A stretch of 64,000 nt of DNA from Elusimicrobiota bacterium (GCA_038059415.1 JBBTJN010000033.1:9330-73329), one strand, 5' to 3'; counted from the stretch's first letter, positions 13,359-30,106 are shown. Notes: generated by a model not told the origin, from the letters alone. Made by a program: numbers and translations.

Positions 13359-13370
13359 GAGGATCGTGAA

Positions 13371-13823
13371 ATGGATGACATGGACAAGAAGAAGGACGCT
13401 TCCAAAGGGGAATTCGTTCCGCGAGTCGCCAAGGACCTCTCCCGTTTTTTGACCAGCGAGGAGGGTAAGATTCTTAAAAAAGACGTGCTCAAGGCGGCGG
13501 CGGTTCTGGGCATCATCGGGGCGGCCATCATGCGCGCGGAGGATCTGCTTGCGCAGTCTCACACCAACGCGATCCACAACTCCGGAAACGCCCCGGCCCG
13601 GCATAGCAGCCACAGCTCTCACGCCAGCCATGCGTCTCACGGCAGCCACGGCAGCCACGGCAGCCACGGCTCGCACGGGAGCCACGGCTCACATGGGAGC
13701 CACGGCTCGCACGGGAGCCACGGCTCGCACGGGAGCCACGGCTCCCACGCCTCGCACGGCTCCCACGGATCCCACGGATCCCACGGATCCCACGGTTCAC
13801 ATGGCAGTCACGGGCAATGGTGA
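13371..13823 (+). CDS. hxsA: His-Xaa-Ser repeat precursor protein, HxsA-like.
   Basis: 150 aa. It has an N-terminal region with a hydrophobic helix ([16 protein letters not shown]). The C-terminus is (H-S/G/A-S)n, about 25 tripeptide repeats, [20 protein letters not shown]...GSHGQW. Confidence 0.8.
13602..13811 (+). repeat. About 23-25 tandem 9-nt repeats (CAC GGN AGC and variants) encoding His-Gly/Ala-Ser.
   Basis: Directly visible as cacggcagccacggcagccacggctcgcacgggagc... Boundaries are approximate. Confidence 0.85.
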
Positions 13824-15720
13824 GGCCAGCCGCCAACGACGCGCCGGCCTGATACGTCTGGCGCGGACCGCAGCGAAGGCGGTCCGCGACGCGGGGGTGG
13901 TCCCGGCGCGAGCATGCATTCGTGTCGATCCCTCCGTTGACGCACCCGTCTGCGTGTGGAGGGCCCTGCCGAGGGCCGGACGAGCCGCAGAATTCCTGGT
14001 GCCGCCGCCTTTGCTCGATGCGGACGCCGGTCCGCGCCTCGCGGGTCTGCTTTCGGTCGCTCTGGCGCGGGCGGGAAACGGATCGTCATACCCCGCTTTA
14101 CCGACCGCTGCCGCCGTGCAGGTTCTCCTTTTTCGCAGCCTTCTCGAGGCGCCGGGCAAGGAAGGAGCGGATCGTCTCAACCAGGGGACATTGTATCTCG
14201 CCTCGGCGTTGCGCGCGGCCGGAGCGGAGGTCGTCCTTTCCGACGCCAAGGTCTCCCGCTTCGCTCGCGAGCCGCGAGAACGAGAGGACCTCGCCCGCCT
14301 GCTCAAAGCCAATCCGGACATCACCTTGGTCGCGCTGAGCCTGTACGATGCCTACTTCGAGGATGCCGCAGCCCTGGTGAGCTTCTTGCGCGAACGCACG
14401 AGAGCCCGGATCGCGATCGGGGCGCTCATGCCCACCCGCGACCCGGAGTCCGCCCTCCTTCATCTGCCGGGCGTCGACTTCGTCTGTCGGGGAGCCGGCG
14501 AGGAGATCCTTCCACGGTTGGCCGCGTTAGCCTCCGTTTGTCCGAGGAGCGCCTTCGACGAGGCCGCCCAAGGGGCGCTGCTCGCCATGGACGGCGTGCT
14601 GGCCGTCGACGACGGGCGTTCGTCCTATTGGGCAGGGGCCGAGGACATCCTGCGCGTCCCCGATCTCGATGCCTCGGCTCTCGACTTCTCGTTCGTGGAA
14701 CGCCGCGACGTTCAATCAGGGCCGACGTTCTGCCTCTCGAGGGGCTGCGGGAGCGCCTGCCACTTCTGCACCTCCCCGGATCAAGGACGCTTTCACGGCA
14801 AGAGCGCCGTCGAGGTCGGGCGGGTGCTGGCCGGGTATGGACGCCGGCTCAAGGAGCTTTATGGGTCCTGGAGCGCGGCTCCGGACGACGCCTTCGCAAT
14901 TGGATTTTATGACGACGACTTCCTGTCCGACGCGCCGCGGGCGTTGGCCGTTTTTGACGTCGTGCGCCGTTCGCCTTTCCATCTGCGCTTTCTACAGGCG
15001 AGCATTCGAGCTTTCTTCCGGCGCGGCAAGGGCGGCGCGATTGGGGGCCTCGACGAGAGCCTGCTTGATGCGCTGTCGCCGGAACTCTTCGTGCCGAAGC
15101 TCGGGCGAGGAAAAGCCTCCCGTGGTCCCCAGCTCTATCTGGGCACCGAGAGCTTCTGCGACGCGGAGCTAGCGCGCCTGGGCAAGGGTTATGGCGTGGC
15201 ACAGGTGGAGGACGTGGTCCGAGCCCTCTCGCGACGGGGATTGAGCCAAGCCCACCACTTTATCGCGACGAACGCCCGTACCCGCCCCGAGGATGTGCTC
15301 GATAGCCTCGGGCGCATCGTGCGCCTGCGCGATGAGTGCGGCATGGATTTCGGCGTGCTCGAGCCCGTAATCTCCCATCTCGTCTCCTTCCCCGGGACCG
15401 CAAGCCTGCGCGCGCTTCAGCGCGAGAGGCTGGATGCGTGCGTCGAGTCGCGCGGCGTCCTGGCCGTTGCGGGCTTCCCGGAATTCGATTATCCTCTCAC
15501 CGTCCGGGAGGTGCCCGCCGACGCAGACGTCGCGGCTTGGGTGGAGCGGCTGAAAATGAAGGGCGCCGGGTTGGATTGGGAGAACGAGTTCGAGGGATTG
15601 CTGTTTGAATGGCTCCTGCTCAGTGAGAGCCTCAGCGCGCGCGGCGCGCAACCCGAGCGCGCCGCGAATCTTCGCCGTGCCGTGGACGCGCAGGCGGGCC
15701 TCATGGGGACGGCACCATGA
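13801..15720 (+). CDS. B12-binding-domain radical SAM protein (class B-like) with an N-terminal extension. The start is uncertain.
   Basis: A Rossmann-like B12-binding region (VQVLLFRS...[13 protein letters not shown]...) is followed by CGSACHFC (CxxxCxxC) and a GTESFCD GxES-type motif. The track ORF starts at 13549 inside hxsA. An ATG at 13801 overlaps the hxsA end. Confidence 0.55.
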
Positions 15721-16721
15721 GCCGCCATCGAAGCCTGAAGGCTAATCTTCAGCTGTTCGTGACCAGACGCTGCCAGCTGCGCTGCCGCTACTGCCCTATC
15801 CTGAAGGGGGAGTCCATCATGCCGCTGTCGACCGCGCTCAGGGGCGCCGACCTGCTCCTGGGGCACGGCTCCTCGCGTTTGCGCCTTGACTTCGGCGGAG
15901 GGGAGCCGTTGCTGAACTTCGACGTGGTGCGAGAGGTCTCGGACTACGCCCTGCGCCGCGCCAAGAACCTGGGCAAGGACCTGCGCTTCTACATGGTCAC
16001 CAACGGCGTCCTGATCGACGATGCTTTCCTGGAGTGGGCGCGCGACCGGAAGGTTCTTTTGGAATTCAGCATGGACGGAACGCGCGAGGACCATAACCGC
16101 TACAAGTCCGCCTACGACCGCGGGCTCGATCCTTACGCTGCCACGCGCGCGGGGGTGGAGCGCGCACAGCGCTCCGGGATCGCGCATTTCGTCATCATGG
16201 TGGCCAGCCCGGCCAATGCGAGCCGCCTCGCGGAGAATTTCGAGCATCTCTTCGACATCGGCGTGCGGCGCGTGGACCTGAGCTACGCCGTCGGCGGCGT
16301 CTGGTCCGCGCAGGATGAGGCGGTCTACTTCGAGCAGGTGTCGCGCGTCCTGACCCGCCACGCCCGCGCGCTCGACTCCGGCGAGATCCATCTCGGCAAC
16401 GCGCGTCAGCGTCTCGAGCCGACCATCCTTAACAGCGAGCTGATGGTGGATCCCGACGGATCGCTGCATCAGATGAGTGAGTGGATGTTCGAAACGACTC
16501 CTGCGAAGACGACACCGCCGTTCCCCGTGGGTACGCTCGACACCGTCAAGAACATCAACGTCCTGCGCTGGAGCCGATTCCATTCCTACTACACCCTCGC
16601 GAAAATGCACGAGGGCAATTCGGAGGTTCAGGCGGCTCTGCTCAACAACATCTCCTTCGGACTGCGCGTCGGCAAGTTCTTCCGCGCGGCCGTGGGGCGC
16701 TTAGGGAAGGTGCCCGCGTGA
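15717..16721 (+). CDS. Radical SAM protein, a candidate HxsC-type partner maturase.
   Basis: The motif is CQLRCRYC and the glycine-rich motif is GGGEPLL. The C-terminal LNSELMVDPDG segment is shared with paralogs at 16718 and 20108. Confidence 0.7.
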   Translation: MSRHRSLKANLQLFVTRRCQLRCRYCPILKGESIMPLSTALRGADLLLGHGSSRLRLDFGGGEPLLNFDVVREVSDYALRRAKNLGKDLRFYMVTNGVLIDDAFLEWARDRKVLLEFSMDGTREDHNRYKSAYDRGLDPYAATRAGVERAQRSGIAHFVIMVASPANASRLAENFEHLFDIGVRRVDLSYAVGGVWSAQDEAVYFEQVSRVLTRHARALDSGEIHLGNARQRLEPTILNSELMVDPDGSLHQMSEWMFETTPAKTTPPFPVGTLDTVKNINVLRWSRFHSYYTLAKMHEGNSEVQAALLNNISFGLRVGKFFRAAVGRLGKVPA

Positions 16722-17935
16722 GGAGTCTCTACGAAGCCTCGATGGCTCGCGCCGAGCGCGCGCTCCTCAACGCGGACAAGGACGGCGGCGTTTGCGCGCG
16801 CCGGACCTTGGCGGCCCTCGACGCGGCTCTTTTCGAGGCCTTGCGCCGGGCCGAGTCCGCTCCGGATGGCTGCGCCCGCGCCGCGCGCCGCGCCGAGCTC
16901 AGGGGCTGGGCCTTCTACCGGCGTCGCCTGCTCAGCCGCCTCATTAAGACCGGATTGCGACCCAACGGCGACCACCTGCGGGCGCTTTTCTCGGGCTCGG
17001 GGAGCGACCGGCTGATCCTGCTCGTCACCCACGCCTGCCAGCTGCGCTGCGCGTATTGCCGCGTTCGCAAGTATGGCGCGACGATGGATGCCGAAACGGC
17101 GGATGCCGGGGTGCGCTGGCTGATGAGCTCGCTGCGTCGGGACGTGGAGCTTCAGTTCTTCGGGGGCGAGCCGCTCCTGGCCCTGCCCATCCTGCGTCGC
17201 GCGGTCGCCCTTGCAGAAACCTCGGCCCGAAACGCAGGGAAAAGCGTGCGCTTTCTGTTGACGACCAACGGCCTGGCGCTTGATGAAAAGGCGATTTCTT
17301 TCTTGCGGGAGCATCACTTCACCGTGGAGGTGAGCTGCGACGCAACGATGAGCGCCCAGGACGCCCAACGCCCGATGGCGAAGGGTACGAGTTCGTGGTC
17401 TGCGCTGCGTTCCGGTATGGAGCGCCTGCGGCGGGCCGAGATTCCCCATCAGGTCATCGCCGTGGTGCTCCCGGAAGACGCGGCTTGCGCGCACGAGCGC
17501 GTCGCGGCTCTGGCGGAGATGGGCCACCGGCGCATTCAGATCAACTATGCTCTCGGCCGCCACTGGACCGATGACCAGGCAGCTGCCTTGCGCGAGTCCA
17601 TGGACCGCGCCGCAGCCGCCTCCAAGCGCCTGGGAGTCGAACTGGTCAACCTAACCGTGAAGCGCCGCGAGCCGGTAGTGCTCAACAGCGAACTTACGGT
17701 GGACTGCGACGGGACGGTGTTCCGCGAAACCGGGGTGTGCCTGGAGGAGGATTTCCAGGAGATGAAGAAGCGCTTTCGGGTGGCCGACATTAGGAATGCC
17801 GGGCTCTTCGAAACCTACGGGGCCACGCCCTTCGACAACTTCGCCATCCTCGCCTCGGCGTACGGCCGCGGAGAGATGCGCAGCATCTTGCTCAGCAATC
17901 TCGAGCTTGGACGTTCGTTTGCGAGGGCGAAGTGA
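16718..17935 (+). CDS. Radical SAM protein, paralog of the 15717 gene.
   Basis: The motifs are CQLRCAYC and FGGEPLL, and LNSELTVDCDG is shared. The GTG at 16718 overlaps the upstream stop (GTGA). An alternative ATG lies at 16745. Confidence 0.65.
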   Translation: MRSLYEASMARAERALLNADKDGGVCARRTLAALDAALFEALRRAESAPDGCARAARRAELRGWAFYRRRLLSRLIKTGLRPNGDHLRALFSGSGSDRLILLVTHACQLRCAYCRVRKYGATMDAETADAGVRWLMSSLRRDVELQFFGGEPLLALPILRRAVALAETSARNAGKSVRFLLTTNGLALDEKAISFLREHHFTVEVSCDATMSAQDAQRPMAKGTSSWSALRSGMERLRRAEIPHQVIAVVLPEDAACAHERVAALAEMGHRRIQINYALGRHWTDDQAAALRESMDRAAAASKRLGVELVNLTVKRREPVVLNSELTVDCDGTVFRETGVCLEEDFQEMKKRFRVADIRNAGLFETYGATPFDNFAILASAYGRGEMRSILLSNLELGRSFARAK

Positions 17936-20118
17936 AGGTGCTCCTTCTCAACCCGCGCAACCCCGATCCGCCTCCGGTCTACTTCGGCGCGCCCTACGGC
18001 CTGTCCTTGCTCGGAGCCATCCTGAATTCCCGCGGCGTCGAGGTCGTCGGGCGCGACTATACCCATTTTCCCCAGGCGGCCATGCTCGGCGACGCGTCCG
18101 CCGTAGTCGAGAGGGAAGGTCCGGACCTCGTGGGCATTTCCTGCCAAAGCTCCAACCGCGGGGCGGCCGTCGCCTTAGTTCGGCGTCTCAAGGAAGAATC
18201 GCCCAAACTTCGCGTCGTGGTGGGTGGGCCCTTCGCCAGCACCGACCCCGAACTGGTCCTGCGCCGCACCGGAGCCGACTGGGTCGTTGTTGGAGACGGC
18301 GAGGAGACTTTGCCCGAGCTCGTCATCGCGCTCTCCCGCGGCGGCGACGCGCGCGAGGTCGCGGGCCTGCTTTGGTCCGAGCGCGGCAAGGTTCGTCGGT
18401 CGGCGCAACGGGAGCCCTTTTCGGATCTCGACTCATTGCCCGATCCCGACTTCGACCTGTTCGAGGCCGCGTCCAACCTGAGCCGATTTCAGAGGCCGCG
18501 CGCGGAGGCTCTGGCCGCGCCCGTCGGGGCGGCGGGCCGTCCGTGCCTGGTCATGCATAGCGCCATCATGCTCCTGAGTTCGCGAGGTTGCGTGTATCGC
18601 TGCGTGTTCTGCCCCATGAGCACCTTCAAGGGCAAGCCCCGCCTGCACTCTCCCGCCTATTTCGTCCGTCAGGTCTCCGTGATGGCCCGGCGCTACCGCT
18701 GGCGCGATTTCGTCTTCGGCGACAACTACTTCACCCGTGACCGAAAGCGCGTACTGGAGATCTGCGCGGGGCTGCGCCGTGAGGTGCCCGGCATCCGCTG
18801 GATATGCATGACGCGCTCAGACGCTATGGACCCGGTGTTGGCTCGCGAGATGGCCGCCGCGGGCTGCCGCGAAATCTCCTACGGCATCGAGAGCGGTTCG
18901 CCGCGGGTGCAGAAGGCCATCGGCAAGAGCCTGGACCTCGACCGCGTGCCCGCCGCTTTCGCCGCCACGCGCGAGGCGGGGATGCAGACGGTGCTCATGC
19001 TCATGGTGGGCAACCCCGGAGACAATCTTGAGACGACGCGCGAGACGGCCGACTTCCTGCGCCCAATCCAGGCGGATCGGATACAGGTGCACACGACCAA
19101 GGTCTATCCCGGCACCGCCATTCACGCGACGGCGGCGGCGGCCGGAGTGATCCCTCCCGACTTTTACGAAAGCGACGAGCATCAGCCTCCGCTGTACACG
19201 GTGGAGCGCAGCGCCGCCGAGCTTTCGCAGATGCGAGTTCTCCTGCCCTCCCGCACGCATTATATTGAGGCAAATTCCGGCTGTGTCAACGGCTGCTGTT
19301 TGTTGCGCCGTCCCGCCGCCCGCAAGAAGATCGCCTTATCCGCCGCGTTGGCGCAGACCGCGTTCCGGGCGGAACGGGGCGTACTGGGGGGGGGGGAGTC
19401 TCTCCTCATCGCGGACCTGGACAAGGCGCTTGACGACGCCGAGGCCCTGCAGGTGTTCGACCTGAGCTTGTACACCACGGCTAGGCCCCTGGCCGACGCG
19501 CGCAGGGTCTCGGGTCTGCGCGCGCGCAAGGAGATGCGCCGCCTGGTCGTACCTCTTCTGTCTCCCGAGGCAGCGCGTCACGATGCGCGCGCCCGCGTGC
19601 CCGGGGCCCTGGCCCAGACGAAACTTGGTCTGCGGCACTGGCTGCGAAGCGGCGGCGAAATTCTGGCCTGGCTCATACCCATGAGGGAAGACCTCGCCGA
19701 ACTCGGGACATGGACGCGTCGCCTGGCTGGCGAGGGCGTGCGAGAGGCGCTTCTCATTCATCGCGAGCCGCCTCCCGGCTGGGGCGGCCTGCCTTTGGAG
19801 GACACCCCGCGCCTGGAGCCCTTCGCCGCCGCCGCGGCCGAGGCCGCCTTCCGCGCCAAAGAGGCGGGCCTGACGTTGAGCGTGTTCGGTCTGCCTCCCT
19901 GCCTCTGGGATGGGAAGCTGGCTCCACGGCATGAGGACCGCGCTCTCTACGACGAGGTGGTCTCTGACGCGGCGGAGGCGGTGACTGCCCGTTCGCGGCG
20001 CCTCCTGCGGCAGGCCTTCAGCCCGTGTTGTTCCGGTTGCGCGCGGCGGCCTTCGTGCGACGGCGTCTGGGGCGATTATCTCGCCCGGCACGGGGAGGAG
20101 GAGCTTCATGCCCTCTAA
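17932..20118 (+). CDS. B12-binding-domain radical SAM protein with a roughly 300-aa C-terminal extension.
   Basis: The N-terminal B12-binding fold is MKVLLLNPRN...LVGISCQSS. The rSAM motifs are CVYRCVFC and SYGIESGS. The tail is CSGCARRPSCDGVWGDY...EEEL. The GTG start overlaps the upstream stop. Confidence 0.75.
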   Translation: MKVLLLNPRNPDPPPVYFGAPYGLSLLGAILNSRGVEVVGRDYTHFPQAAMLGDASAVVEREGPDLVGISCQSSNRGAAVALVRRLKEESPKLRVVVGGPFASTDPELVLRRTGADWVVVGDGEETLPELVIALSRGGDAREVAGLLWSERGKVRRSAQREPFSDLDSLPDPDFDLFEAASNLSRFQRPRAEALAAPVGAAGRPCLVMHSAIMLLSSRGCVYRCVFCPMSTFKGKPRLHSPAYFVRQVSVMARRYRWRDFVFGDNYFTRDRKRVLEICAGLRREVPGIRWICMTRSDAMDPVLAREMAAAGCREISYGIESGSPRVQKAIGKSLDLDRVPAAFAATREAGMQTVLMLMVGNPGDNLETTRETADFLRPIQADRIQVHTTKVYPGTAIHATAAAAGVIPPDFYESDEHQPPLYTVERSAAELSQMRVLLPSRTHYIEANSGCVNGCCLLRRPAARKKIALSAALAQTAFRAERGVLGGGESLLIADLDKALDDAEALQVFDLSLYTTARPLADARRVSGLRARKEMRRLVVPLLSPEAARHDARARVPGALAQTKLGLRHWLRSGGEILAWLIPMREDLAELGTWTRRLAGEGVREALLIHREPPPGWGGLPLEDTPRLEPFAAAAAEAAFRAKEAGLTLSVFGLPPCLWDGKLAPRHEDRALYDEVVSDAAEAVTARSRRLLRQAFSPCCSGCARRPSCDGVWGDYLARHGEEELHAL
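19386..19396 (+). repeat. Homopolymeric G tract of about 11 inside the 17932 gene.
   Basis: ctgggggggggggag encodes GGGE. The exact length is +/-1. Confidence 0.6.
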
Positions 20119-21976
20119 GAAAATACTAAACACGACGCGCTCGGTCATGCTCATGGCCACGTACGAGTGTCAGTTGCGCTGCGCCTACTGCCAGATCCGG
20201 CGTGGGCCCCGGCGCATGGACGAGCGCACGGCCTTGCGCGGCGCGGACCTTCTTCTGTCGTCGCATGCCGACCATCTCCTCCTCAACTTCTTCGGCGGCG
20301 AGCCCCTGTTGGTCTGGGACCTGGTGCGCAAGACGGCGGCCTATGCCCGCGAGCGCCGCGGGGGCCGCCCCTTGCGCATCAACCTCACCACCAACGGCCT
20401 TCTGCTCGATGACAAGAAGATCGAATTCCTTCAAAGTGTGGACGGCTATGTGCACCTGAGCCTCGACGGCCCCGCCGAGGCCAACGCTTCGCGCCTGCGC
20501 TCCGCCGGTCCCGGCGCGCAGAAGGCGATGCAAAGTGCGCTCCGCCGTCTCGCGGCCTCCGGCCTGCCATACCATGTCAACGCCGTCGTCGATCCCGTGC
20601 GCGCGGCCTCCTTCGACTGCGACTTGCTCGCCCTCGAGGATCTGGGCGCGCGCCGTATCCAGTTCGGCTATCAGGTCGGCGTGCTTTGGAGCAAGCGGGC
20701 CATCGGCGACCTTCTCGCGGCGCTCGACCGCTACGCGGCGCGCGGGAAAGCCGAGCTTAACAACCGCACCTCGGACAGCGAGCCGGTTATGCTCAGCCAG
20801 GAGGTCATCGTCGATACCGACGGCCGCATTTATTGGGACGGAGGGCTCTTTCTAGAGGCGACCTTGCCGAAGGTGCGTGAGGCGCTGCTCTTGGGATGCC
20901 TCGACGCGTCGCCCGACGTTGACGCCTTCGAGCGAGAGCCGCGCAAACCCTACGAACGGCTGACGACCGCCTACCCGGCGAACACGAAGGGCGGTCATAT
21001 CATCCTCAATAACGTCAAGGTGGGCCTGGCCCTCAAGCGCCATTGGGTGGGCCAGCGCGGCAACGAGGACCCCGCCATCCGGCGCGGCGTGGTCCAGGCG
21101 CGGTTCACCGAGCAGGTCCGCTTCCTGAAAGAGCGCATGCCGGGGCTCGACCGCGTATTCCTCTTCATGAAAGGCGGCTGCGACCTGGACTGCCTGTTCT
21201 GCCGCAACAAGCCGGAGAAGGATTATCAGACGCTTGAAGAAATAGACGCTTGTCTCGCCGAGAACGCCGTATTGCGTCGTGCGAAAATCGCTTTAGTCGG
21301 CAACGAACCCCTGGCTCATCTACAGATCGCCGACATCGTGAAGTTATGCCGCCACTGGGGCTTCACCGACATCGAGGCGATGACATCCGGTCTGCGCCTG
21401 GAGGCGCTGGCGCGTCCATTGGCCGATGCCGGCATGAGTTCCTACGCTTTAGCTCTTCACGGCTCGACGGCCAAAGTCCATGACGCCGTGGTCCGCCATG
21501 ATGGCGCGTTCGACGCCGCCTTGCGCGGCGCCGAGGGGGCGCAGGCGGCCGGTTCGCGAGTCTTTGTGCATGCCAGCGCCTGCCGGGCGAACCTATCCGA
21601 TCTCCCAGCCCTCGAAAAGCTGGTCCGCGAGCGCGCCTGGCCGTTCTCGATTCACCCGCTGCGTCCCAAGGACGCCGACGGCATGAACGAGCCCTACGAC
21701 AAGATCGCGCCGGACTATGCCGAGCTTCGCGCCGCTTTGACCGGCCGCGTTAGATCGCTGACCGGCTTTCCCTCCTGCGTGGCCCGCGCCGTGCAGGGCC
21801 GAGCTTCGTGCCCGGCCGCGCAGATCGCCGATTCCATGCGGCTTTACCTCCATCATCAGGCCTTCGTGAAGCCCGCGACATGCTCCGCGTGCCCGGAGCG
21901 CGAGGATTGCGTGGGCACATTCGAAGAGCATCTCCGCTCCCGTCCCGCGGAGAAAAAGGAGCTGACTTTCTCATGA
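20108..21976 (+). CDS. Tandem double radical SAM domain protein.
   Basis: Two CxxxCxxC motifs are present: CQLRCAYC near the N-terminus and CDLDCLFC at about residue 360. The N-terminal half is paralogous to the 15717 and 16718 genes. The tail is CSACPEREDCVGTFEEH. Confidence 0.75.
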   Translation: MPSKKILNTTRSVMLMATYECQLRCAYCQIRRGPRRMDERTALRGADLLLSSHADHLLLNFFGGEPLLVWDLVRKTAAYARERRGGRPLRINLTTNGLLLDDKKIEFLQSVDGYVHLSLDGPAEANASRLRSAGPGAQKAMQSALRRLAASGLPYHVNAVVDPVRAASFDCDLLALEDLGARRIQFGYQVGVLWSKRAIGDLLAALDRYAARGKAELNNRTSDSEPVMLSQEVIVDTDGRIYWDGGLFLEATLPKVREALLLGCLDASPDVDAFEREPRKPYERLTTAYPANTKGGHIILNNVKVGLALKRHWVGQRGNEDPAIRRGVVQARFTEQVRFLKERMPGLDRVFLFMKGGCDLDCLFCRNKPEKDYQTLEEIDACLAENAVLRRAKIALVGNEPLAHLQIADIVKLCRHWGFTDIEAMTSGLRLEALARPLADAGMSSYALALHGSTAKVHDAVVRHDGAFDAALRGAEGAQAAGSRVFVHASACRANLSDLPALEKLVRERAWPFSIHPLRPKDADGMNEPYDKIAPDYAELRAALTGRVRSLTGFPSCVARAVQGRASCPAAQIADSMRLYLHHQAFVKPATCSACPEREDCVGTFEEHLRSRPAEKKELTFS

Positions 21977-22923
21977 CCGCCCCCGGGATCCTTGCGGCCT
22001 CCCGGCGTTTGGAGTTGCATCTCTCCTACGTCTGCGGCCAGCGCTGCGCCTTCTGCTCGGAGAGCGTGCGCATGGACCGATGGCGACACGCGCCGCTCAA
22101 GGGCGAAGAGATATCCGCTGTCCTCATCAAACGCCGCAAGGCGGGCTTCAACCACGTGACCTTCACCGGAGGGGAGCCTACGGCGCAGGCGCTCCTGCCG
22201 GCCGCGCTCGCTGCGGCCCGTAAGCTCGGCTTCAACACATATCTGACCACCAACGGCGGGCTCTTCGCTCAGGAGAAATACGCCCGGGAGGTCCTGCCGC
22301 TCGTCGATGAAATCTGCCTGTCCGTTCACGGCCCCGACGCCGAGACCCACGATGCCGCGGCCGACACGCGGGGCTCCTTTGATCGGGCGATGAAGGCCCT
22401 GGCCAACATCGAGGCACACGGCGCGAGCACCTACCTTCTCACCAACACCGTCGTCACGCGACTCAACTGGGACCGTCTTGAGGACACCTTGGCCCTGCTG
22501 ACCTCTCATCCTAAGGTCCGGCATTGCCTCCTCTCCAACGTCGCTCCGGAAGGCCGCGCGTCCGGCGCTTACAAGTCCTTGGTCGTGCCGCTGTCGAAGT
22601 GGCGTCAGCGAGTGCCTGCGCTCGCCCGCCCCTTCGAGACAAACGGCGTGGTCCTGCGGCTGTTCGGCCTGCCTCTGTGCGTCCTAGGCGGGCGGCTGGA
22701 ACTGTCCAATGACGCCCATTATTCCCCGCGTGTGACCGTGGAGCGCCGCGGCGCGAAAGGCAGGCCCGGCCTGAGCGCAATCGCCAGCGTCGACGCCTCG
22801 CGCCGCCGCAGCAAGCCCGGAATCTGCCGCTCCTGCGACGGGCGTGGAGATTGCGCCGGCGTATTCGACCGCTACCTCGCCGCTTACGGAAGTTCGGAGC
22901 TCGCGCCCCAGAGGGCGAACTAA
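21973..22923 (+). CDS. Radical SAM protein.
   Basis: The motifs are CGQRCAFC and TGGEPT. The tail is CRSCDGRGDCAGVFDRYLAAYGSSEL. The ATG overlaps the upstream stop (ATGA). Confidence 0.75.
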   Translation: MTAPGILAASRRLELHLSYVCGQRCAFCSESVRMDRWRHAPLKGEEISAVLIKRRKAGFNHVTFTGGEPTAQALLPAALAAARKLGFNTYLTTNGGLFAQEKYAREVLPLVDEICLSVHGPDAETHDAAADTRGSFDRAMKALANIEAHGASTYLLTNTVVTRLNWDRLEDTLALLTSHPKVRHCLLSNVAPEGRASGAYKSLVVPLSKWRQRVPALARPFETNGVVLRLFGLPLCVLGGRLELSNDAHYSPRVTVERRGAKGRPGLSAIASVDASRRRSKPGICRSCDGRGDCAGVFDRYLAAYGSSELAPQRAN

Positions 22924-23864
22924 TGGCCACGCTCGCATATCTACAGGTTGCGCGCATCTGCAATCAAAAATGCCTGTTCTGTTCCAACCCGGAGAACGGG
23001 CGCGTGATCTCCTGGAAGGAAGCGACGGATCTGGTGGATTGCTTTGCCAAGGAGAAGGCCGCCGGAGTGATCATCACTGGGGGCGAACCGACCTTGTTCG
23101 ACCGTTTGCCGGAGTTGGTGGCCTACGCCCTCAAGAGGGGATTGCCGCCGCGTCTCATCACCAACGGTCAGCGAGTCTGCAGGCCTGATTACCTCAAGGC
23201 GCTCGTCGACGCCGGGCTCAGCCACATGCATATCTCCGTGCATTCGGCTAGGCCCGAGGTGCAGGGAGAGCTCACGGGCAATAACAACTCTCTTGCGAAC
23301 ATACTGCGCGCCCTGGAGAACGCCGGGAAGCTGGGGGTGCGCGTGGACATCAACAGCGTCATCAATAGTCGCAACGCCGGGCACCTGAGCTACACGCCGC
23401 GCTTTCTCGTTGAGCGCTTCCCGTTCCTTTGCCACTTCGTCTGGAACAATCTGGACCCGCAGATGAATGCCGCCTCGCTCAATGCCGAACTCGTGCCCAA
23501 GTTGAGAGCATTCGAGGTGGAACTCCATCGCGCGATGACCTGGCTGGCCAAGGCCGGGAAAAGCTTTCGCGTCGAGCGCGTGCCGCTCTGCTTCATGTCC
23601 GATTTCGGTCATTTCTCCACGGAGACGCGCAAGTTCGTCAAGAACGAGGGCCGAGACATCTATTTCTTGGACGAGAAGGGACGCAAGAAACAGGACAAAA
23701 GCTCCTGGAGTTACGACAAGGCGCCGCGCTGCAAGGCGTGTTCCGTCAATAAGATTTGCGCCGGGTTGTATCAGATGGACGTGTACTACTCTTCCTCGGA
23801 GCTCTGTCCCATACTGACTCCGGCAGACGAGGTGGTCGCGAAGGTCCGCGCGGAGGCGTCATGA
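22923..23864 (+). CDS. Radical SAM protein, paralog of the minus-strand gene at 25671..26609.
   Basis: The motifs are CNQKCLFC and TGGEPTL. The tail is CKACSVNKICAGLYQMDVYYSSSEL. Confidence 0.75.
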   Translation: MATLAYLQVARICNQKCLFCSNPENGRVISWKEATDLVDCFAKEKAAGVIITGGEPTLFDRLPELVAYALKRGLPPRLITNGQRVCRPDYLKALVDAGLSHMHISVHSARPEVQGELTGNNNSLANILRALENAGKLGVRVDINSVINSRNAGHLSYTPRFLVERFPFLCHFVWNNLDPQMNAASLNAELVPKLRAFEVELHRAMTWLAKAGKSFRVERVPLCFMSDFGHFSTETRKFVKNEGRDIYFLDEKGRKKQDKSSWSYDKAPRCKACSVNKICAGLYQMDVYYSSSELCPILTPADEVVAKVRAEAS

Positions 23865-24817
23865 GCGATCGGGTCGATCTTAAGGTCGGGTTTCGCTGCA
23901 ACAACTACTGCCAATTCTGCGTGCAGGGCGATAAGCGCGAGCGCCTGCCGGTCAAGCCCGAGGCGGAACTGATCAAGTCCCTGGAAGAAGGGAGAGCGGG
24001 GGGCGCAATCGGCGTCGTCATTACAGGCGGCGAGCCCACCCTCCACGAGGGAATCGTCAAGATCGCGCGCGCGGCGCGCGACCTCGGCTACACCCTCATC
24101 CAGGTGCAGAGCAACGGGCGCACCTTCTGCTACGAAGATTTCTGCAAGCGCCTCATCGACGCGGGCGTCAACGAGTTCGGGCCGTCCCTGCACGGCTCGA
24201 CGGCTAAAATACACGATTATCTTACGGGATCGCCCGGGGCCTTCATGCAGGTGGTCTCCGGCATACGCAACCTCAAACGCCTTAAGCAGCGCGTCATCAC
24301 CAACTCGGTGATCACCAAGGTCAACTACCGCGACCTGCCCTCCTTGGCGACCTTGCTCGTCGCCTTGGATGTGGAGCAGTTCCAGTTTGCCTTCATGCAT
24401 ATGAGCGGACGCGCGGGGGAGAACAAGGAGTGGCTGACCGCGCGCAAGAGCCTCATCGAGCCGTACGTGAAAAAAGCGCTCGATGTCGGCATCAGGGCGG
24501 GCAAGATCGTGATGACCGAGGCCATCCCATACTGTCTGATGAATGGCTACGAGGCCTATGTCGCCGAGCAGATCATACCGCGAACGCGCATCTACGACGC
24601 GGACTGCGTGATTGCCGACTACACGCGTACGCGCATCGACGAGGGCAAGAGCCGCGGGCCGCGGTGCGTCGAGTGCGACTGGCACTTCAAATGCGAGGGG
24701 CCGTGGAGGGAATATCCCGAGCTGTTCGGCTGGGACGAGTTCGTGCCGGTTAAGAAGGCCGCGCCCGCGCCGAAGAAGGCGGCGCCCGTCGCCAGAGCGG
24801 AGAGAAAGAAACGTTGA
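23861..24817 (+). CDS. Radical SAM protein with a Lys/Ala/Pro-rich C-terminus.
   Basis: The motifs are CNNYCQFC and TGGEPTL. The tail is CVECDWHFKCEGPWREYPELFGWDEF. Confidence 0.75.
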   Translation: MSDRVDLKVGFRCNNYCQFCVQGDKRERLPVKPEAELIKSLEEGRAGGAIGVVITGGEPTLHEGIVKIARAARDLGYTLIQVQSNGRTFCYEDFCKRLIDAGVNEFGPSLHGSTAKIHDYLTGSPGAFMQVVSGIRNLKRLKQRVITNSVITKVNYRDLPSLATLLVALDVEQFQFAFMHMSGRAGENKEWLTARKSLIEPYVKKALDVGIRAGKIVMTEAIPYCLMNGYEAYVAEQIIPRTRIYDADCVIADYTRTRIDEGKSRGPRCVECDWHFKCEGPWREYPELFGWDEFVPVKKAAPAPKKAAPVARAERKKR

Positions 24818-25674
24818 GGAGCGAGGATCTGTTGGTTCTGGTCCTCACGCGCCGCTGCGAGCGGCGGTGCGGTCATTGCCCGCAGTCCTTCGACGAGGCC
24901 GACATGTCCGAGGGCACTCTCGACGCGGCATTGGAGGGCCTGCTGCCGCAACTGCGCCCTCCCGCCCGCGTCAAGCTGTTCGGCGGCGAGCCCCTGCTGC
25001 GCCCGGACCTCGTGACGCGCGCCCTTGAGCGCCTGGCGGTCCTGGCTCCGGGCACGGCCGTGGAACTTCCCACTCACGGCACGGGACTGTCCGCGGTGGA
25101 GGCGCTTCTGGCTCGCCGTCCCGAGGTGGAGGTGTTTGTCAGCTTCGCCGATCCCGCGGCGGCCCGCCTGTCGGGCGTGGTGCACAACTTCTTGATCCCG
25201 CCCGGAGAGGCCCCGGCCTCAACGGCGCGCCGCATGGCTCTGGCGCGCAAGCGCGGCTACAACCGTTTCAACTTCCTGCCCGCTTACTTCGTGCCCTGGA
25301 CGCCCGCTCAACTCAAGGGCCTGGCCTCCTGCTTTGCCGCGGTGCGCAGGGTGCTCGACTGCTGGTCCGCCGCAGGCCGCTGCGCCGAGGTGGTCAATCT
25401 CTCTCGGCGCGGGACGACGCCGCTGTACAACGATGGCCTGGTCGTCGACACCGACGGCGAGGTGTACAACTCGAATCTGATTTTGGCCGCCGCCGTTAGG
25501 CCTCACAGGGGGAGGCTGCATCTGGGCCGGGTACACGAGCCCGGCAATCTGTCCGCGCGACCGATCGCCGAAGCCGCGCAAGTCATGCGGGACTCCTTTC
25601 CCGCGGATGTCTTGGCGGCAACGTCGGCGGTAGACGCGGAGCTGACCGCGTTCTGCCTCAGGCTCTCCCGCTAG
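24814..25674 (+). CDS. Radical SAM protein.
   Basis: The motifs are CERRCGHC and FGGEPLL. The TTG start overlaps the upstream stop. Confidence 0.65.
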   Translation: MRSEDLLVLVLTRRCERRCGHCPQSFDEADMSEGTLDAALEGLLPQLRPPARVKLFGGEPLLRPDLVTRALERLAVLAPGTAVELPTHGTGLSAVEALLARRPEVEVFVSFADPAAARLSGVVHNFLIPPGEAPASTARRMALARKRGYNRFNFLPAYFVPWTPAQLKGLASCFAAVRRVLDCWSAAGRCAEVVNLSRRGTTPLYNDGLVVDTDGEVYNSNLILAAAVRPHRGRLHLGRVHEPGNLSARPIAEAAQVMRDSFPADVLAATSAVDAELTAFCLRLSR

Positions 25675-26609
25675 GGGCTTGCCCTGATCCTGCGCCGCAC
25701 CTCTTGCGCGGGCAGGGCGGACGGACACAACTCCTGCGACGAGTAGTGCGTGTCCATCTGATACAGCCCCGCGCAGACCGAAGTCAGCGAGCAATCCTCG
25801 CATCGCGGGCTCTTTGCGTAGCTCCAATGAAGACCGTGCTGTTCCTGAAGGCCCTTCTCGTCGAGGAAGTAGATGCTGCGCGACTCTTTCTTGACGATCC
25901 GACGCGTCTCAGTCGAGCACTCCGGATAATCCGACATGAAGCACAGCGGCACGCGCGCGACGCGGAAAGTCCGTCCGGTGGAGTCGAGTTGGGCCATAGC
26001 CTTGTGCAGTTCTATCTCGAGGTCGCGTAGGCGCGCTACCAGGTCAGGGCCCAGGGACGCGCCGTTCATGAGCGGGTCGAGGTTGTTCCACACGAAATGG
26101 CGCAGATAGGGCCAGCGTTCGATGAGCCAGCGCACCAAAGCGGAGAGTTCGCTCGCGTTGACCTTGGTGATAGTGGTGTTGATGTCCACCGTGAGGCCGA
26201 GCGCGCCCGCGTTGTCCAAGGTCTTGATGATGTTGGCCAGGGAGCGAGGGTTGCGGGAGAGGGACGCCTGGGTCTTGCCGGATGGGGAATGGACCGAGAC
26301 GTGCATGAGGCGCAGGCCGGCGGCGTAAAGCGATTTCAGGTATTTCGGATCGGCGGTTTTCTGGCCGTTGGTGATGAGGCGTGGCGTCAGGCCCTTGTCG
26401 ATTGCGTAAGCCGTCAATTCGGCGAGCTCCTTGAAGAGGGTGGGCTCGCCGCCGGTGAGGATAAGTCCGTCGTAGTTCTTCGCGGCGAAGCCGTCGACGA
26501 GGTCGATGGCCTCCTTCCAGGAGAGGACCATGCCGTTGTCGGGGTTGGAGCAGAAGGTGCACTTCTGATTGCATAGGCGCGATACCTGCAGATAAGCCAT
26601 TTCGGCCAT
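25671..26609 (-). CDS. Radical SAM protein, convergent with the plus-strand array.
   Basis: The motifs are CNQKCTFC and TGGEPTL. The tail is CEDCSLTSVCAGLYQMDTHYSSQEL. The track ORF extends to 26834, but the internal ATG at 26609 (MAEMAYLQV...) matches the paralog N-terminus and abuts the upstream stop. Confidence 0.7.
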   Translation of the reverse strand: MAEMAYLQVSRLCNQKCTFCSNPDNGMVLSWKEAIDLVDGFAAKNYDGLILTGGEPTLFKELAELTAYAIDKGLTPRLITNGQKTADPKYLKSLYAAGLRLMHVSVHSPSGKTQASLSRNPRSLANIIKTLDNAGALGLTVDINTTITKVNASELSALVRWLIERWPYLRHFVWNNLDPLMNGASLGPDLVARLRDLEIELHKAMAQLDSTGRTFRVARVPLCFMSDYPECSTETRRIVKKESRSIYFLDEKGLQEQHGLHWSYAKSPRCEDCSLTSVCAGLYQMDTHYSSQELCPSALPAQEVRRRIRASP

Positions 26610-29600
26610 CAGGGCACCGTCCGCAGCTCGGAGGAGCCGAACATTTCGAGATACAGCGCCCAGGTGCGCGGGCAGGTCTCGCGCAAGACGCAGGTCCGGC
26701 ATGCGGGAGGCGTGGGGCGGGACTGTATCTGGGCGCCCATGCCGTCGTGGACGCCGTTGAGATCGTCGGCGCGGAAGCGGTCCCACTGTCCCGCACTTTC
26801 CGCGCCGCTGCGCAGACTTTCGTCGAGTAGGCACGCAGGCAGGCCCTCGGTGGTGACGTTCAGGCCTAAGGCCGAGGCGGCGCGCGCGGCGCGGCCCACG
26901 GCCTCGGCGGCGTCCGCGAGGCGGACCAAAGGTCCGACGACCACTTCGCGCGGCAATTGGACGGGACGTGGGAAATTGAATTGTATTCTCCTAACCCCTA
27001 ATTTAGCGAGCAAGGCCGGGATATGTTCAAGATGATCGATGTTCCCGCGCAGAACCGGAACGGTGACCAGGACATCCTTGCTCGCGTCGAGTAAGACCTT
27101 GGTTCCCATGAGGGCCTCGCGCAACGAGCCTGCGGTACCGCTCAGGCCGTCGTGGGTCGCTTCGTCGTGCCCGAGGATAAGGACTTCTGCCGCGTCGATT
27201 TGCGCCAGGAACTTCTGCGGCCGCGTAAAGGAACGAGCATTGGTCTGGAGCTGGATGTAGCGGTAGCCCATCTCGCGCGCGGCGGCGAGCATCTCCGGCA
27301 GGCGCGGCCATGACGCTGGCTCGCCGCGCATCACGATGAGCTCGTCGCAGTTTGCACGGCGCCCGTTCTCAAGAGAGGCGATCGCGGCTACATAAGTCCT
27401 CGGCGCGAGGCCGGCGATATCCGCGATCGTGCAGTGCGGACATTGCAAATCGCAGTCCACCGTCACCCGCAAAGACAGGCGCCGTCCGCCGGGCAAGGCG
27501 CGCAGGATCGCCGGGTCGGCGCTCGCCGTCGCACGAGGCTTCGCGACCGTGGCGATGAACGGCCCTATGACCAATGCGTCGGCACCCAGGGATACGAAGG
27601 CCTCCGCCGCCTGCGAGGGGGTGCAGACGATAGGCTCGTCCTTGCGGTTGAAGGAGGTGTTGAGGACCATGGGCACGGCGGTGAGCTTCTCGAACTCACA
27701 GATGAGGCGGTGGTAGAGAGGAGATTGGGCGGCATGGACGCTTTGCGGACGCGTAGTGCCGTCGTCGTGGAGCACCGCGGCGATGAGCGCCTTTTTCTCC
27801 GCGCGCACTGGGACGGTGAAAAGCATGAAGCGCGAGTCGAAGGCGTCCTCGAACCACTCGGTTTCGCGGCCGGCTAAAATGGACGGCCCGAACGGCCTCC
27901 AAGAATGGCGCGACTTGAGGGCGTTGAGCCGGTCCTTAGAACCCGGGTCGCGCGGGTCGGCCAGCAGGCTGCGGGCGCCGAGGGCGCGGGGGCCGAATTC
28001 TAGACGGCCCTGAAACCAGCCCAAAATCTTCCCTTCGGAGAGCATCTTCGCCGCATCCCGGCACAGATCGTCCGGACGGCGATAAGAAAGCCCCGCTGCG
28101 TCCAGCGCGGAGGAGATCTCGCTTTCGGTGAAATCGGGGCCTAGATAGGCGTCGCCCATGACGAAGTCCGGGCCGCCGGGCGAGGTCAGGGCGTGGGCTT
28201 CCAACGCCGCGCCCAAAGCCGTGCCCGCGTCGTTGGCCGCGGGCTGGACGAACATCTGTTTCGGCAGGAATTTCTCGCGGATGAGTTGGTTCATTCGGCA
28301 GTTGAGCGCGACGCCTCCAGCCACGCATAAACCGGCGGGGTTGGAAGGAACGAATTCATCGAGTATGCCGAGGATCGTCTCCTCCAGTGATTTTTGAAGC
28401 GAGGCCGCGAGGTCGCGGTGCTCGAGCTTGAGCGCCTCGTGGGGCGCGCGCCGATAGGTCTCGAGTTCGGCGGACAACTCCTCGTTGATCGATATCTTTT
28501 TCTTGCCTTGCCAAGATAAGAAGCGCTCGAAGGGAATGCCGGGCCGGCCGGTGCCTGACAAAGCCATCACGATCCCCTGGCCATGTGCGCCGAATCCCAG
28601 CAGTCTTGTCGCGGACTCGTACACGCCGCCGATCGAGCGGCGGACCAAAGACGGCAGCTCGTAAACCTGGTTCAGCGCGCCGCCGCGGGCGCGGAACAGC
28701 GCGGCCGTCTGCCGTTCGCCCCGCCCGTCCACGGTGAGCACCCAGGAGTCTTTTTGCCCCGAGGCTCGGAAGGCGGAGGCGGCGTGGCAGAGGTGATGGG
28801 GGATGAACATCAGGCGTCCGCAGCGAATGACGGGCAAGGGCTCGCCGGGCGGCGCCGAGGCATGGGCCATGCCGTAGCGGGGAGGCAGGCCGTTGATCGC
28901 GATCACATCCATGTCGTCGAGCGAGAGGCCCTCCTTTGACAGGAGGACGCGTATGGCCCTGCGGCAGAACGCCTCCTCCAGGGTGAAGCCGAAGCGGCGC
29001 GCGCCCGGCTCCGGCCAGCCGTAATGGCGGATGCGAGCCAGCTTTTCTTCTTCCACGGCGCCGACGAGCACTCCGTCCTTGAGCAAGGCGGCCGCATGCT
29101 CCTGCATCGTGTGGATGGCCAGACCCAGTATGTAGCGAGGCTTTTTCGGGGGATCGAGCTTGGGCAGGAGATAGGAGGGTGGAAACGGGGCAGGCGCGGC
29201 CGGGCCCGCTTTGCCGCGCAGGCGCGACAGCCAGCCGGGGCGGTCGGCGGCGGCCTCGGCGCGCATCGCGCTGGTGAAGCGGTAAGGCGGACGCAAGGCG
29301 TCCTTGGGGCAGGCCTCCACGCAGTCGAAGCAGCTGAGGCAGGCGGCGGCGTCAGGGAGCGCCGTGCCGCCGCGCTTTAGGCGCCCGGCCGGACAGACGC
29401 CGGCGCAGACGTCGCACGGCTCGCAGCGAAGGGGATCGACGACGATATCGTCGCCTTGCGCCGCAGCCGTCGGCCGGCGCAGTATGCCTCGTTCGAGACC
29501 ATCTATCAGTATCCGGAAATCCTTCGGCACAGGCGCGGGGGAGCTGCCGAGATGGGAGGCGAACCATGAAAGCGCCTTTCGTTCTTGGGCCGCGGCGATA

Positions 29601-30106
29601 AAGATCGCGGGGGCCAAACCTGTCGAGTTTTCACGTCGGCGCCAAGCCAGGAGAAACGGTCCCGTTCCGGCGGTGACCGGACCGGCTCCGATTGTGGAGG
29701 CATGCAGACGCGATAGGAGTTTCTTCAGCCCAGCCGGCGGCACTCCTTTTTTTGAGCCCAAGCGCCGCGTCAGGAAGCCGGCGCAGGACCGGGCATTCTC
29801 CGGGGAGACCTCGACCAAGGCCACGGTGAGTGTGGGAACTCGTCGTTTGTCTTCGATTCGAGGCGTCTTCCCGTCAGGGAGATCTTTGACCGTCGTGCGC
29901 ACGGAGAGTCCGGCGAAACGATCCTTCAGCCAAGCGTGCGCCTCCTCAAGGTCCGGATGCCTGGAATTCGAGGTCAGGATGGCGCCCTCGTCGTCGAGGG
30001 TCAGCAGGAAGCCGCCTTTGAGCTTTGCCGCGACGCCGCGCAGAAGTTCCGCCGTAGAGAGCTTCGTGCCGCAAGCGTCGGTCACGGGAGAGGCGGTCAT
30101 GGTCAA
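26609..30106 (-). CDS. Giant fusion protein (1165 aa): N-terminal domain, 2x[4Fe-4S] ferredoxin domain, carbamoyltransferase and an intact C-terminal radical SAM domain.
   Basis: It is a paralog of the 6197..9667 gene. The ferredoxin motifs are CEPCDVCAGVCP and CLSCFDCVEACP. The carbamoyltransferase core carries HHLCHAASAF. The C-terminal domain has CDLQCPHC (CxxxCxxC). The tail is CRTCVLRETCPRTWALYLEMFGSSEL. Confidence 0.8.
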   Translation of the reverse strand: MTMTASPVTDACGTKLSTAELLRGVAAKLKGGFLLTLDDEGAILTSNSRHPDLEEAHAWLKDRFAGLSVRTTVKDLPDGKTPRIEDKRRVPTLTVALVEVSPENARSCAGFLTRRLGSKKGVPPAGLKKLLSRLHASTIGAGPVTAGTGPFLLAWRRRENSTGLAPAIFIAAAQERKALSWFASHLGSSPAPVPKDFRILIDGLERGILRRPTAAAQGDDIVVDPLRCEPCDVCAGVCPAGRLKRGGTALPDAAACLSCFDCVEACPKDALRPPYRFTSAMRAEAAADRPGWLSRLRGKAGPAAPAPFPPSYLLPKLDPPKKPRYILGLAIHTMQEHAAALLKDGVLVGAVEEEKLARIRHYGWPEPGARRFGFTLEEAFCRRAIRVLLSKEGLSLDDMDVIAINGLPPRYGMAHASAPPGEPLPVIRCGRLMFIPHHLCHAASAFRASGQKDSWVLTVDGRGERQTAALFRARGGALNQVYELPSLVRRSIGGVYESATRLLGFGAHGQGIVMALSGTGRPGIPFERFLSWQGKKKISINEELSAELETYRRAPHEALKLEHRDLAASLQKSLEETILGILDEFVPSNPAGLCVAGGVALNCRMNQLIREKFLPKQMFVQPAANDAGTALGAALEAHALTSPGGPDFVMGDAYLGPDFTESEISSALDAAGLSYRRPDDLCRDAAKMLSEGKILGWFQGRLEFGPRALGARSLLADPRDPGSKDRLNALKSRHSWRPFGPSILAGRETEWFEDAFDSRFMLFTVPVRAEKKALIAAVLHDDGTTRPQSVHAAQSPLYHRLICEFEKLTAVPMVLNTSFNRKDEPIVCTPSQAAEAFVSLGADALVIGPFIATVAKPRATASADPAILRALPGGRRLSLRVTVDCDLQCPHCTIADIAGLAPRTYVAAIASLENGRRANCDELIVMRGEPASWPRLPEMLAAAREMGYRYIQLQTNARSFTRPQKFLAQIDAAEVLILGHDEATHDGLSGTAGSLREALMGTKVLLDASKDVLVTVPVLRGNIDHLEHIPALLAKLGVRRIQFNFPRPVQLPREVVVGPLVRLADAAEAVGRAARAASALGLNVTTEGLPACLLDESLRSGAESAGQWDRFRADDLNGVHDGMGAQIQSRPTPPACRTCVLRETCPRTWALYLEMFGSSELRTVP

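Follow-up and report, generated by a model that had tools for sequence, protein, structure and literature searches.

The locus and its Hxs core

A stretch of 64,000 nucleotides from an Elusimicrobiota bacterium (GCA_038059415.1, JBBTJN010000033.1:9330-73329), referred to here at its full length as the window, contains 23 radical S-adenosylmethionine (SAM) or pseudo-radical-SAM domains. Twelve of these end in a common cysteine-bearing tail, which is the subject of this study. The tail is the inherited end of one HxsC-like radical SAM family that has 12 copies in the locus. It is probable that a four-cysteine module, to which the tail belongs, closes every domain of the HxsC/HxsC4 type, that the 12 copies are ancient paralogs, and that the module carries an auxiliary [4Fe-4S] cluster.

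A complete His-Xaa-Ser (Hxs) core of three components is encoded on the plus strand. HxsD (11143-11865) scored 59.9 bits against TIGR03976 (cut-off 50). The radical SAM/SPASM maturase HxsB (11862-13358, longest open reading frame (ORF) from 11583) scored 510.5 bits against TIGR03978 (cut-off 370), with a match that spans residues 112-574 of the long ORF and a SPASM-type motif, CSKCVYKPYCGIC. The repeat protein HxsA4 (13371-13823) scored 112.1 bits against NF038313 (cut-off 55). It has approximately 24 H-x-S repeats, mostly HGS, that end in HGQW, and is probably what the system acts on. Tail-bearing genes start 4 kb downstream of this core (11143-13823), on the same strand. Since HxsD, HxsB, and HxsA4 are all above their curated cut-offs, the tail proteins can be regarded as amplified HxsC paralogs.

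The window represents a Group VI nitrogenase-like (Nfl) cluster from groundwater Elusimicrobia. It contains four NifH/D/K-like gene sets, two of which have NifH fused to a D/K-like domain, and homologs come from metagenome-assembled genomes of Elusimicrobia. The single-polypeptide fusions of NifH-like and NifD/K-like (Oxidored_nitro) domains are found at 36438-38789 (minus strand) and 50595-52991. A stand-alone NifH-like gene (48619-49449) and six more D/K-like genes are also present. Multiple NifH/D/K-like sets and many adjacent radical SAM genes have been described for Group VI clusters, and a tetrapyrrole substrate was proposed (Meheust et al., 2020; 2026 Chem Rev review, PMC13474568). Unlike in the present analysis, the radical SAM proteins were left unclassified in these publications, and neither Hxs components nor the tail were mentioned. 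Within the literature collection that was searched, no publication joins "His-Xaa-Ser" and "nitrogenase". Thus, the link between an Hxs core and a Group VI nitrogenase-like cluster appears to be unreported.

The tail and the four-cysteine module

An earlier note on this DNA described the tail and quoted ten peptides, each of which was found as an exact match in the six-frame translation. They lie at 9569-9646, 20029-20079, 22825-22902, 23730-23804, 24665-24742, 44404-44472, 56271-56348, and 57494-57562, and on the minus strand at 25728-25802 and 26624-26701. Each one ends an ORF with a Radical_SAM Pfam match, and the stop codon follows 3-24 residues downstream. Two extra tails were found by a pattern scan, CSACPEREDCVGTFEEHL (21881-21916, within ORF 20108-21976) and CRGCALEIRCDGMSIVDIREKGF (30181-30216, minus strand, within ORF 30103-32277), for a total of 12 tail-bearing domains. 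Both carbamoyltransferase fusions (6197-9667 and, on the minus strand, 26609-30106) are among the carriers. The claim that the tail occurs on these fusions and on at least ten radical SAM proteins is therefore confirmed. It is not locus-wide, as had been stated, since 11 other radical SAM domains of the window lack it. These are HxsB, four PapB/nif11-like domains, two B12-type domains, one SPASM protein, and others.

The strict pattern C..C.{5}C.G had 10 matches in 42 real ORFs (20,667 residues). In 2000 per-protein shuffles, the mean was 0.0165 and the maximum was 1, and this control rules out a chance origin of the motif. In both carbamoyltransferase fusions, CPR replaces CxG.

Rather than standing alone, the tail closes a radical SAM domain of approximately 300 residues that is common to all 12 proteins, and these align as paralogs from the CX3CX2C motif through the stop codon. 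A hydrophobic-Pro-x-Cys (hPxC) is invariant in 12 of 12 domains and lies 34-60 residues upstream of the tail. The module can be written as hPxC-X34-60-CxxCx5CxG-aromatic...[YF]G..E[LF], of which the tail is the last third. The earlier description of a three-cysteine motif was correct for the CX2CX5C of the tail but overlooked the upstream hPxC, and the conserved cysteines number four. The explicit definition of this four-cysteine module appears to be new.

Tail-bearing genes

The range that the earlier note had flagged, 21973-24817, consists of three translationally coupled HxsC-like radical SAM genes on the plus strand. Their likely ATG codons (21973, 22923, and 23861) each overlap the stop codon of the preceding gene. 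The first gene (21973-22923, longest ORF from 21808) starts after AAAGGAG. It scored 70.8 bits against Radical_SAM and 94 bits against HxsC4 over its full length, tail included, and has its PxC cysteine codon at 22678-22680 and its CX2CX5C at 22825-22854. The second gene (22923-23864) scored 87.5 bits against HxsC and has a tail of the type CAGLYQMD.YYS..ELCP (PxC cysteine, 23589-23591; CX2CX5C, 23730-23759). Its tail signature was seen again in the related loci L014, L019, L024, L033, L036, and L069. The third gene (23861-24817, longer ORF 23756-24817) has a tail of the type CEGPWREYPE.FGW.EF (PxC cysteine, 24533-24535; CX2CX5C, 24665-24694). Its 147.8 bits against HxsC4 is the top score of the window, and it scored 106.2 bits against HxsC. 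The database protein P0270 is 100% identical to the 318-residue product that starts at 23861.

On the minus strand, an HxsC-like radical SAM gene (25671-26609; PxC cysteine, 25941-25943; CX2CX5C, 25773-25802) is a 60% identical duplicate of the second gene of the trio. It is followed in coordinates by a fusion of ferredoxin, carbamoyltransferase, and HxsC-like radical SAM domains (26609-30106, minus strand), in which Carbam_trans_C scored 206 bits and the motif CDLQCPHC is intact. The PxC cysteine is at 26831-26833 and the CX2CX5C, with the variant CPRTW, at 26672-26701. A second fusion of this kind (6197-9667, plus strand) is 52% identical to the first and ends in a pseudo-radical-SAM domain in which the three CX3CX2C positions read D, P, and A. 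It keeps the four-cysteine module (PxC cysteine, 9434-9436; CX2CX5C, 9569-9598). The lengths of the two carbamoyltransferase fusions are 1156 and 1165 residues.

Other carriers combine different domains. The gene at 17932-20118 (plus strand) encodes a B12-binding radical SAM domain and then an HxsC-like domain with CVNGCC and the tail (PxC cysteine, 19900-19902; CX2CX5C, 20029-20058). A two-domain protein (20108-21976, plus strand) starts with a PapB/nif11-like radical SAM half and continues into an HxsC-like domain and the tail (PxC cysteine, 21776-21778; CX2CX5C, 21881-21910). At 30103-32277 (minus strand), a 350-residue N-terminal region of no assigned family precedes an HxsC-like radical SAM domain and tail, with 90.7 bits against HxsC4. 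Its CX2CX5C is at 30187-30216, and its PxC is ambiguous, being either GPLC at 30325-30327 or DPSC further upstream. The HxsC-like radical SAM gene at 43111-44499 (plus strand, longest ORF from 42970) encodes a protein that is extended at its N-terminus and has a looser tail, CMGVPAEYARRFGL (PxC cysteine, 44284-44286; CX2CX5C, 44404-44433). Its 55% identical duplicate is found at 56357-57589 (plus strand, longest ORF from 56087; PxC cysteine, 57374-57376; CX2CX5C, 57494-57523). The gene at 55386-56360 (plus strand) encodes a minimal HxsC-like radical SAM protein of 324 residues, which scored 119.8 bits against HxsC4 over its full length and was the source of the structural models.

The region 6197-38789 looks partly duplicated in mirror orientation, with a strand switch near 25.67 kb. 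The carbamoyltransferase fusion and the CAGLYQMD-type gene are each present in two copies, one per strand.

Conservation of the module

Among the 12 paralogs, mean pairwise identity is 24% for the core, compared with 32% for the 27 tail columns. Without the invariant cysteines, the tail drops to 23%, so it is no better conserved than the core. Three pairs represent later duplications: 6197/26609 (approximately 50% identity), 22851/25671 (60%), and 42970/56087 (55%). Recent duplication or gene conversion was considered as the source of the tail and rejected. The paralogs are only about 24% identical, the tail is not above the core without its cysteines, and orthologs of each tail type are found in other phyla.

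An alignment of 54 sequences was made up of orthologs of 55386-56360 and three window paralogs. Its invariant positions are the three SAM-cluster cysteines (C15, C19, and C22), P233, C235, C296, C299, C305, and G307. In alignment A1, the proline and cysteine of PxC, the three tail cysteines, and the glycine were all invariant; in alignment A2, the proline and cysteine of PxC and the three tail cysteines were. The tail is retained in 114 of 116 full-length homologs of 55386-56360, and the whole module in all 118 homologs (orthologs) of 23861-24817.

Membership in Radical_SAM (PF04055) is clear for most of the carriers, with CX3CX2C, whose cysteines ligate the SAM-binding [4Fe-4S] cluster, present in 10 of the 12 tail domains and the Pfam gathering score reached by 10 of 12. 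The radical SAM domain of 26609-30106 scored 22.4 bits, under the Pfam cut-off of 29.5. In 17932-20118, the second domain is without a Pfam stretch of its own and has CVNGCC instead of CX3CX2C. The module stays where the SAM-cluster cysteines are gone (6197-9667), which fits a role that is independent of SAM cleavage. Such a role could be electron relay, substrate holding, or structure. Both HxsC-like domains with degenerate SAM motifs (6197-9667, residues ~870-890; 17932-20118, residues ~450-456) keep all four module cysteines.

Relationship to HxsC and HxsC4

Radical_SAM was the sole family that Pfam recognised in the tail-bearing radical SAM domains. The top NCBIfam matches of the tail proteins were HxsC4 (NF038332) and HxsC (TIGR03977), all far under their cut-offs. 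HxsC4 is the best-scoring family for most paralogs, and the window resembles HxsC4 systems in having HxsA4 above its own cut-off. The tail aligns with the final ~30 positions of the HxsC4 model (about 304-334 of 335), and the match includes the aromatic/Gly/acidic part. Residues 697-726 of 17932-20118 alone match positions 304-333 of 335 (E 3.8e-8), and the full-length HxsC4 matches of 21808-22923 and 55386-56360 extend to position 334. The source names given to homologs of 23861-24817 and 55386-56360 are generic ("radical SAM protein"), and none is HxsC4.

Annotated hxsC genes were recovered from plasmids by tblastn and then translated. The module is present in the HxsC of Klebsiella, as YPLC...C342DEC345TQKSSC351AGYF, and in that of Mesorhizobium, as FPLC...CAGCGLRDDCGGFF. 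A radical SAM protein of a Clostridium perfringens plasmid carries it as well (FPPC...CVGCDRNQKCGGIYNEYIQFYGWEEF). The residue numbering of the Klebsiella protein is identical to that of the published C342/C345 mutant protein, and the C342A/C345A change reduced activity in a study of HXS anti-phage defence (PMC13128918). C342 and C345 are the first two tail cysteines, and the same second-cysteine-cluster pattern is found in 12 of 12 window domains. The tail falls in the curated HxsC/HxsC4 family, and mutants of its first two cysteines have already been made in HxsC.

The window paralogs share whole-domain homology with HxsC (TIGR03977; PMC13128918), with 61-106 bits for most of them, as well as the C-terminal hPxC...CxxCx5CxG-aromatic module. 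They are also found, as HxsC is, with HxsB, HxsD, and a His-Xaa-Ser repeat protein in the same locus. Unlike HxsC, which is present in one copy, they number 12, and several are fused to other domains. The window proteins end in Y..[LF][YF]G..E[LF], an ending that classical HxsC lacks. The context also differs, with nitrogenase-like reductases and carbamoyltransferases in the window instead of a four-gene defence operon.

Distribution beyond the window

A module profile built from 12 sequences and spanning 86 positions matched 1,972 of 1.84 billion cluster representatives at E ≤ 1e-3 and 183 at E ≤ 1e-10. Of the 149 best matches, 94 are tandem fusions of 2-4 radical SAM domains in which the module is internal, with a median of 63.5 residues between the first tail cysteine and the next CX3CX2C. 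Tandem HxsC-like fusions of up to 1,688 residues are common among the best matches (metagenomic P0121-P0269), and each of their domains is closed by its own module.

Related genome loci, 80 in all, were examined from Elusimicrobia, Myxococcota, and Schekmanbacteria. Selection by the pattern PxC...CX2CX5C near the C-terminus gave 189 ORFs, 187 of which have a glycine two residues after the third cysteine. The tail signatures form orthogroups that recur across phyla. The segment after the cysteines is specific to the orthogroup and nearly invariant inside it. HxsB and HxsD are both present in 28 of the 80 loci and HxS repeats in 32, and 43 have no Nfl gene within 10 kb. Many Myxococcota loci contain a compact cassette of HxsD, HxsB, HxsA4, a PapB-like radical SAM gene, and two HxsC-like genes. 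The module was also found in HXS defence operons and in the Clostridium perfringens plasmid cluster, both of which are without nitrogenase-like genes. In the latter (L002, NZ_CP075938.1, 1049-8712), the tail-bearing HxsC-like gene lies in an uncharacterised context that resembles those of peptides that are made on ribosomes and modified after translation (RiPPs). The gene's neighbours encode an NHLP-clan peptide, two DUF6365 proteins, a nucleotidyltransferase, and another radical SAM protein.

The earlier note had proposed a test of whether the motif is confined to radical SAM proteins encoded near hxs or nitrogenase-like genes. A restriction to nitrogenase-like loci is refuted by the Nfl-free Hxs and Clostridium clusters and by the 43 related loci. 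The same observations bear on the earlier suggestion that the tail is a docking peptide, whose C-terminal aromatic/Gly/acidic segment would be recognised by a partner common to the carriers, for example the nitrogenase-like proteins or the peptidase. The ends do loosely share [YF]G..E[LF], and all carriers of the window lie in one locus with four nitrogenase-like gene sets. However, the module is internal in the tandem fusions, with the next radical SAM domain directly after it, and it occurs where Nfl genes are absent. The segment that a common partner would have to recognise differs from orthogroup to orthogroup, and in the model the tail packs well into its domain. Docking is thus highly improbable, and the tail most likely holds an extra iron-sulfur cluster.

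Predicted structure and comparison with SPASM and Twitch domains

The AlphaFold2 model of 55386-56360 has a predicted local distance difference test (pLDDT) score of 95.3 overall and 94-98 in the tail region. After the sixth barrel strand, the predicted order is C235, helices, a β-hairpin (265-268/278-280), a helix (281-289), the CxxC in a short helix, C305, and a final helix (310-316). Whole-protein Foldseek matches were SuiB, BlsE, MoaA, GDGT-MAS, viperin, PqqE, and anSME, and most of the matched radical SAM enzymes carry auxiliary-cluster domains. In a sequence search of the PDB with the family profile, no chain aligned past residue 231, so no solved homolog of the module was found.

The SPASM domain is defined by seven cysteines, CX9-15GX4C-gap-CX2CX5CX3C-gap-C, and binds two clusters (PMC6231123). 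CX2CX5C is the core of this motif and supplies three ligands of the auxiliary II (Aux II) [4Fe-4S] cluster in anSME. Like the SPASM and Twitch domains of anSME, SuiB, PqqE, BtrN, MoaA, and SkfB, the module is a C-terminal extension of the radical SAM barrel, and it has a predicted hairpin-plus-helix topology. It shares the CX2CX5C spacing with anSME and, as in SuiB, takes one cysteine from the post-barrel linker. Unlike SPASM, it has only the CX2CX5C of the seven-cysteine motif. The X3C position is aromatic, and both CX9-15GX4C and the final downstream cysteine are absent. The strict expression CX2CX5CX3C had no match among the ORFs of the window and of the related loci, while a relaxed SPASM pattern recovered the HxsB orthologs. 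When 197 modules were compared by hhalign with 18 HxsB SPASM regions, the cysteines paired one-to-one, with a P of 0.021 and a probability of 2.3% that is not significant.

These likenesses could be explained if the tail were a SPASM or Twitch remnant of a generic kind that unrelated radical SAM enzymes also carry. The spacing equals that of the SPASM core, hhalign pairs the cysteines with those of the HxsB motif, and the predicted topology is a β-hairpin and a helix, followed by the cysteine motif. Against this, no Pfam match to SPASM was obtained at E up to 10 in the 10 modules scanned, the hhalign probability is low, and the isolated module has no neighbour in the PDB. The true SPASM proteins of the window (HxsB and 38930-40135) and its other non-HxsC radical SAM domains are without the tail, and the module profile matched only the 1,972 representatives given above. 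A generic remnant is therefore quite unlikely. The earlier note had called the motif shorter than SPASM and closer to Twitch, and had held that a match to a common domain would remove its specificity. The module is indeed not recognisable as SPASM and is unlikely to be a generic remnant, yet it belongs to a curated family. It may be akin to Twitch, the fold of a β-hairpin plus helix α2′ that binds a single auxiliary cluster in BtrN, MoaA, and SkfB, although neither profile nor structural comparison tied it to SPASM or Twitch.

Proposed role of the module

The cysteine of PxC and the three tail cysteines would together ligate one auxiliary [4Fe-4S] cluster beside the barrel. Such a cluster may transfer electrons to or from a substrate radical, or it may anchor the substrate. 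The aromatic/Gly/acidic stretch could pack over the cluster and shape a substrate pocket that is specific to the orthogroup. The earlier suggestion that the tail could bind an auxiliary [4Fe-4S] cluster thus gains indirect support from the four invariant cysteines and from the same motif in bona fide HxsC.

Another possibility is an open-iron site with three cysteines, as in MoaA, where the fourth iron would bind the substrate (for example, a histidine or serine of the HGS repeats) and the PxC cysteine would be structural. MoaA ranks among the top matches in both sequence and fold, MoaA and CteB are known to have open sites, and SkfB has a conserved pre-hairpin cysteine that is 12 Å from its cluster (PMC6231123). 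However, the PxC cysteine is as invariant as the tail cysteines across more than 200 sequences, as would be expected of a ligand, and an open site appears rather unlikely.

The four cysteines might instead form a structural zinc or [2Fe-2S] site. Four-cysteine sites with CxxC often bind zinc, auxiliary [2Fe-2S] clusters are found in SkfB and PqqE, and the retention of the module in a pseudo-radical-SAM domain would be compatible with a purely structural role. The family context, in contrast, is one of radical SAM enzymes with auxiliary iron-sulfur clusters, CX2CX5C ligates a [4Fe-4S] cluster in anSME, and the double mutant of HxsC was impaired in function. A zinc or [2Fe-2S] site is thus very unlikely.

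Several points weigh against assigning an auxiliary [4Fe-4S] cluster of the HxsC type to these proteins. The second cluster of HxsC was assigned from annotation, and only the double mutant was tested (PMC13128918). The spatial clustering of the four cysteines is presumed. None of the 12 proteins reaches the HxsC cut-off of 267.9 bits, the top score being that of 23756-24817 and the rest 19.5-87.5 bits. None reaches the HxsC4 cut-off of 500 bits either, with top scores of 147.8, 119.8, and 94, so no window protein is an HxsC4 equivalog. The analogy to SPASM and Twitch consists of cysteine spacing and predicted topology. The Pfam scan at E up to 10, which covered 10 of the 12 C-terminal modules (25671-26834 and 56087-57589 being outside it), returned only noise, and Foldseek of the isolated module model (pLDDT 89.5) against the PDB gave nothing under E 2.9.

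Neighbouring genes

A second family of radical SAM paralogs is found at 15717-16721, 16481-17935, 20108-21100, and 44412-45488, and most of its members carry the motif CQLRCxYC. The family matches the N-terminal halves of PapB/nif11-type RiPP maturases best and has neither a SPASM region nor the tail. One ortholog is part of the Hxs cassette of Myxococcota.

The gene at 54578-55336 belongs to the TP_methylase Pfam family, and its ortholog adjoins the 55386 ortholog in many Elusimicrobia loci. Its nearest NCBIfam model is RsmI, a 16S rRNA 2'-O-methyltransferase (56 bits, cut-off 168). It was considered as evidence for a tetrapyrrole pathway and set aside as weak, since RsmI and not the tetrapyrrole methylases is closest.

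Three ORFs of 337-400 residues (9686-10789, 34338-35351 on the minus strand, and 49498-50700) matched nothing in Pfam or NCBIfam. The first of them, rich in cysteine, has a hydrophobic N-terminus and a Lys/Glu-rich end. The ORF at 59377-61500 has a weak Radical_SAM match and a strong C-terminal isochorismatase domain, and it is followed by NrdD (61610-63643), an anaerobic ribonucleotide reductase.

Implications for the Nfl cluster and the HxsC family

The locus is best read as a His-Xaa-Ser type-4 system in which the HxsC component has been amplified among Group VI nitrogenase-like genes, with some of the HxsC-like paralogs fused to B12-binding, PapB-like, or carbamoyltransferase modules. It is possible, though this is put forward only tentatively, that the Nfl cluster is an elaborated His-Xaa-Ser (type 4) peptide-maturation system and not a tetrapyrrole pathway. 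A dozen HxsC-like domains, each with its own four-cysteine auxiliary cluster, would then have the (HGS)n repeats of HxsA4 as their target, and the orthogroup-specific tail would set the specificity for substrate or site. The PapB-like and B12 radical SAM enzymes, the carbamoyltransferase fusions, and the ATP-driven Nfl reductases would take part, and the product could be either an extensively modified peptide or a cofactor derived from one. If this is true, the HxsC-type module would be a structurally distinct class of auxiliary-cluster domain that is without a solved representative.

The "extensive suite of radical SAM proteins" beside Group VI nitrogenase paralogs is largely an amplified HxsC family, and its Hxs neighbours point to a peptide substrate, instead of or alongside the proposed tetrapyrrole. 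The motif hPxC...CxxCx5CxG can serve as a simple sequence rule for recognising HxsC-type domains, and it sorts the 23 radical SAM domains of the locus. Recent work showed the importance of HxsC enzymes for anti-phage defence (PMC13128918). The four cysteines, together with a natural pseudo-radical-SAM domain that has the auxiliary site only, offer concrete targets for study of the second cluster of HxsC.

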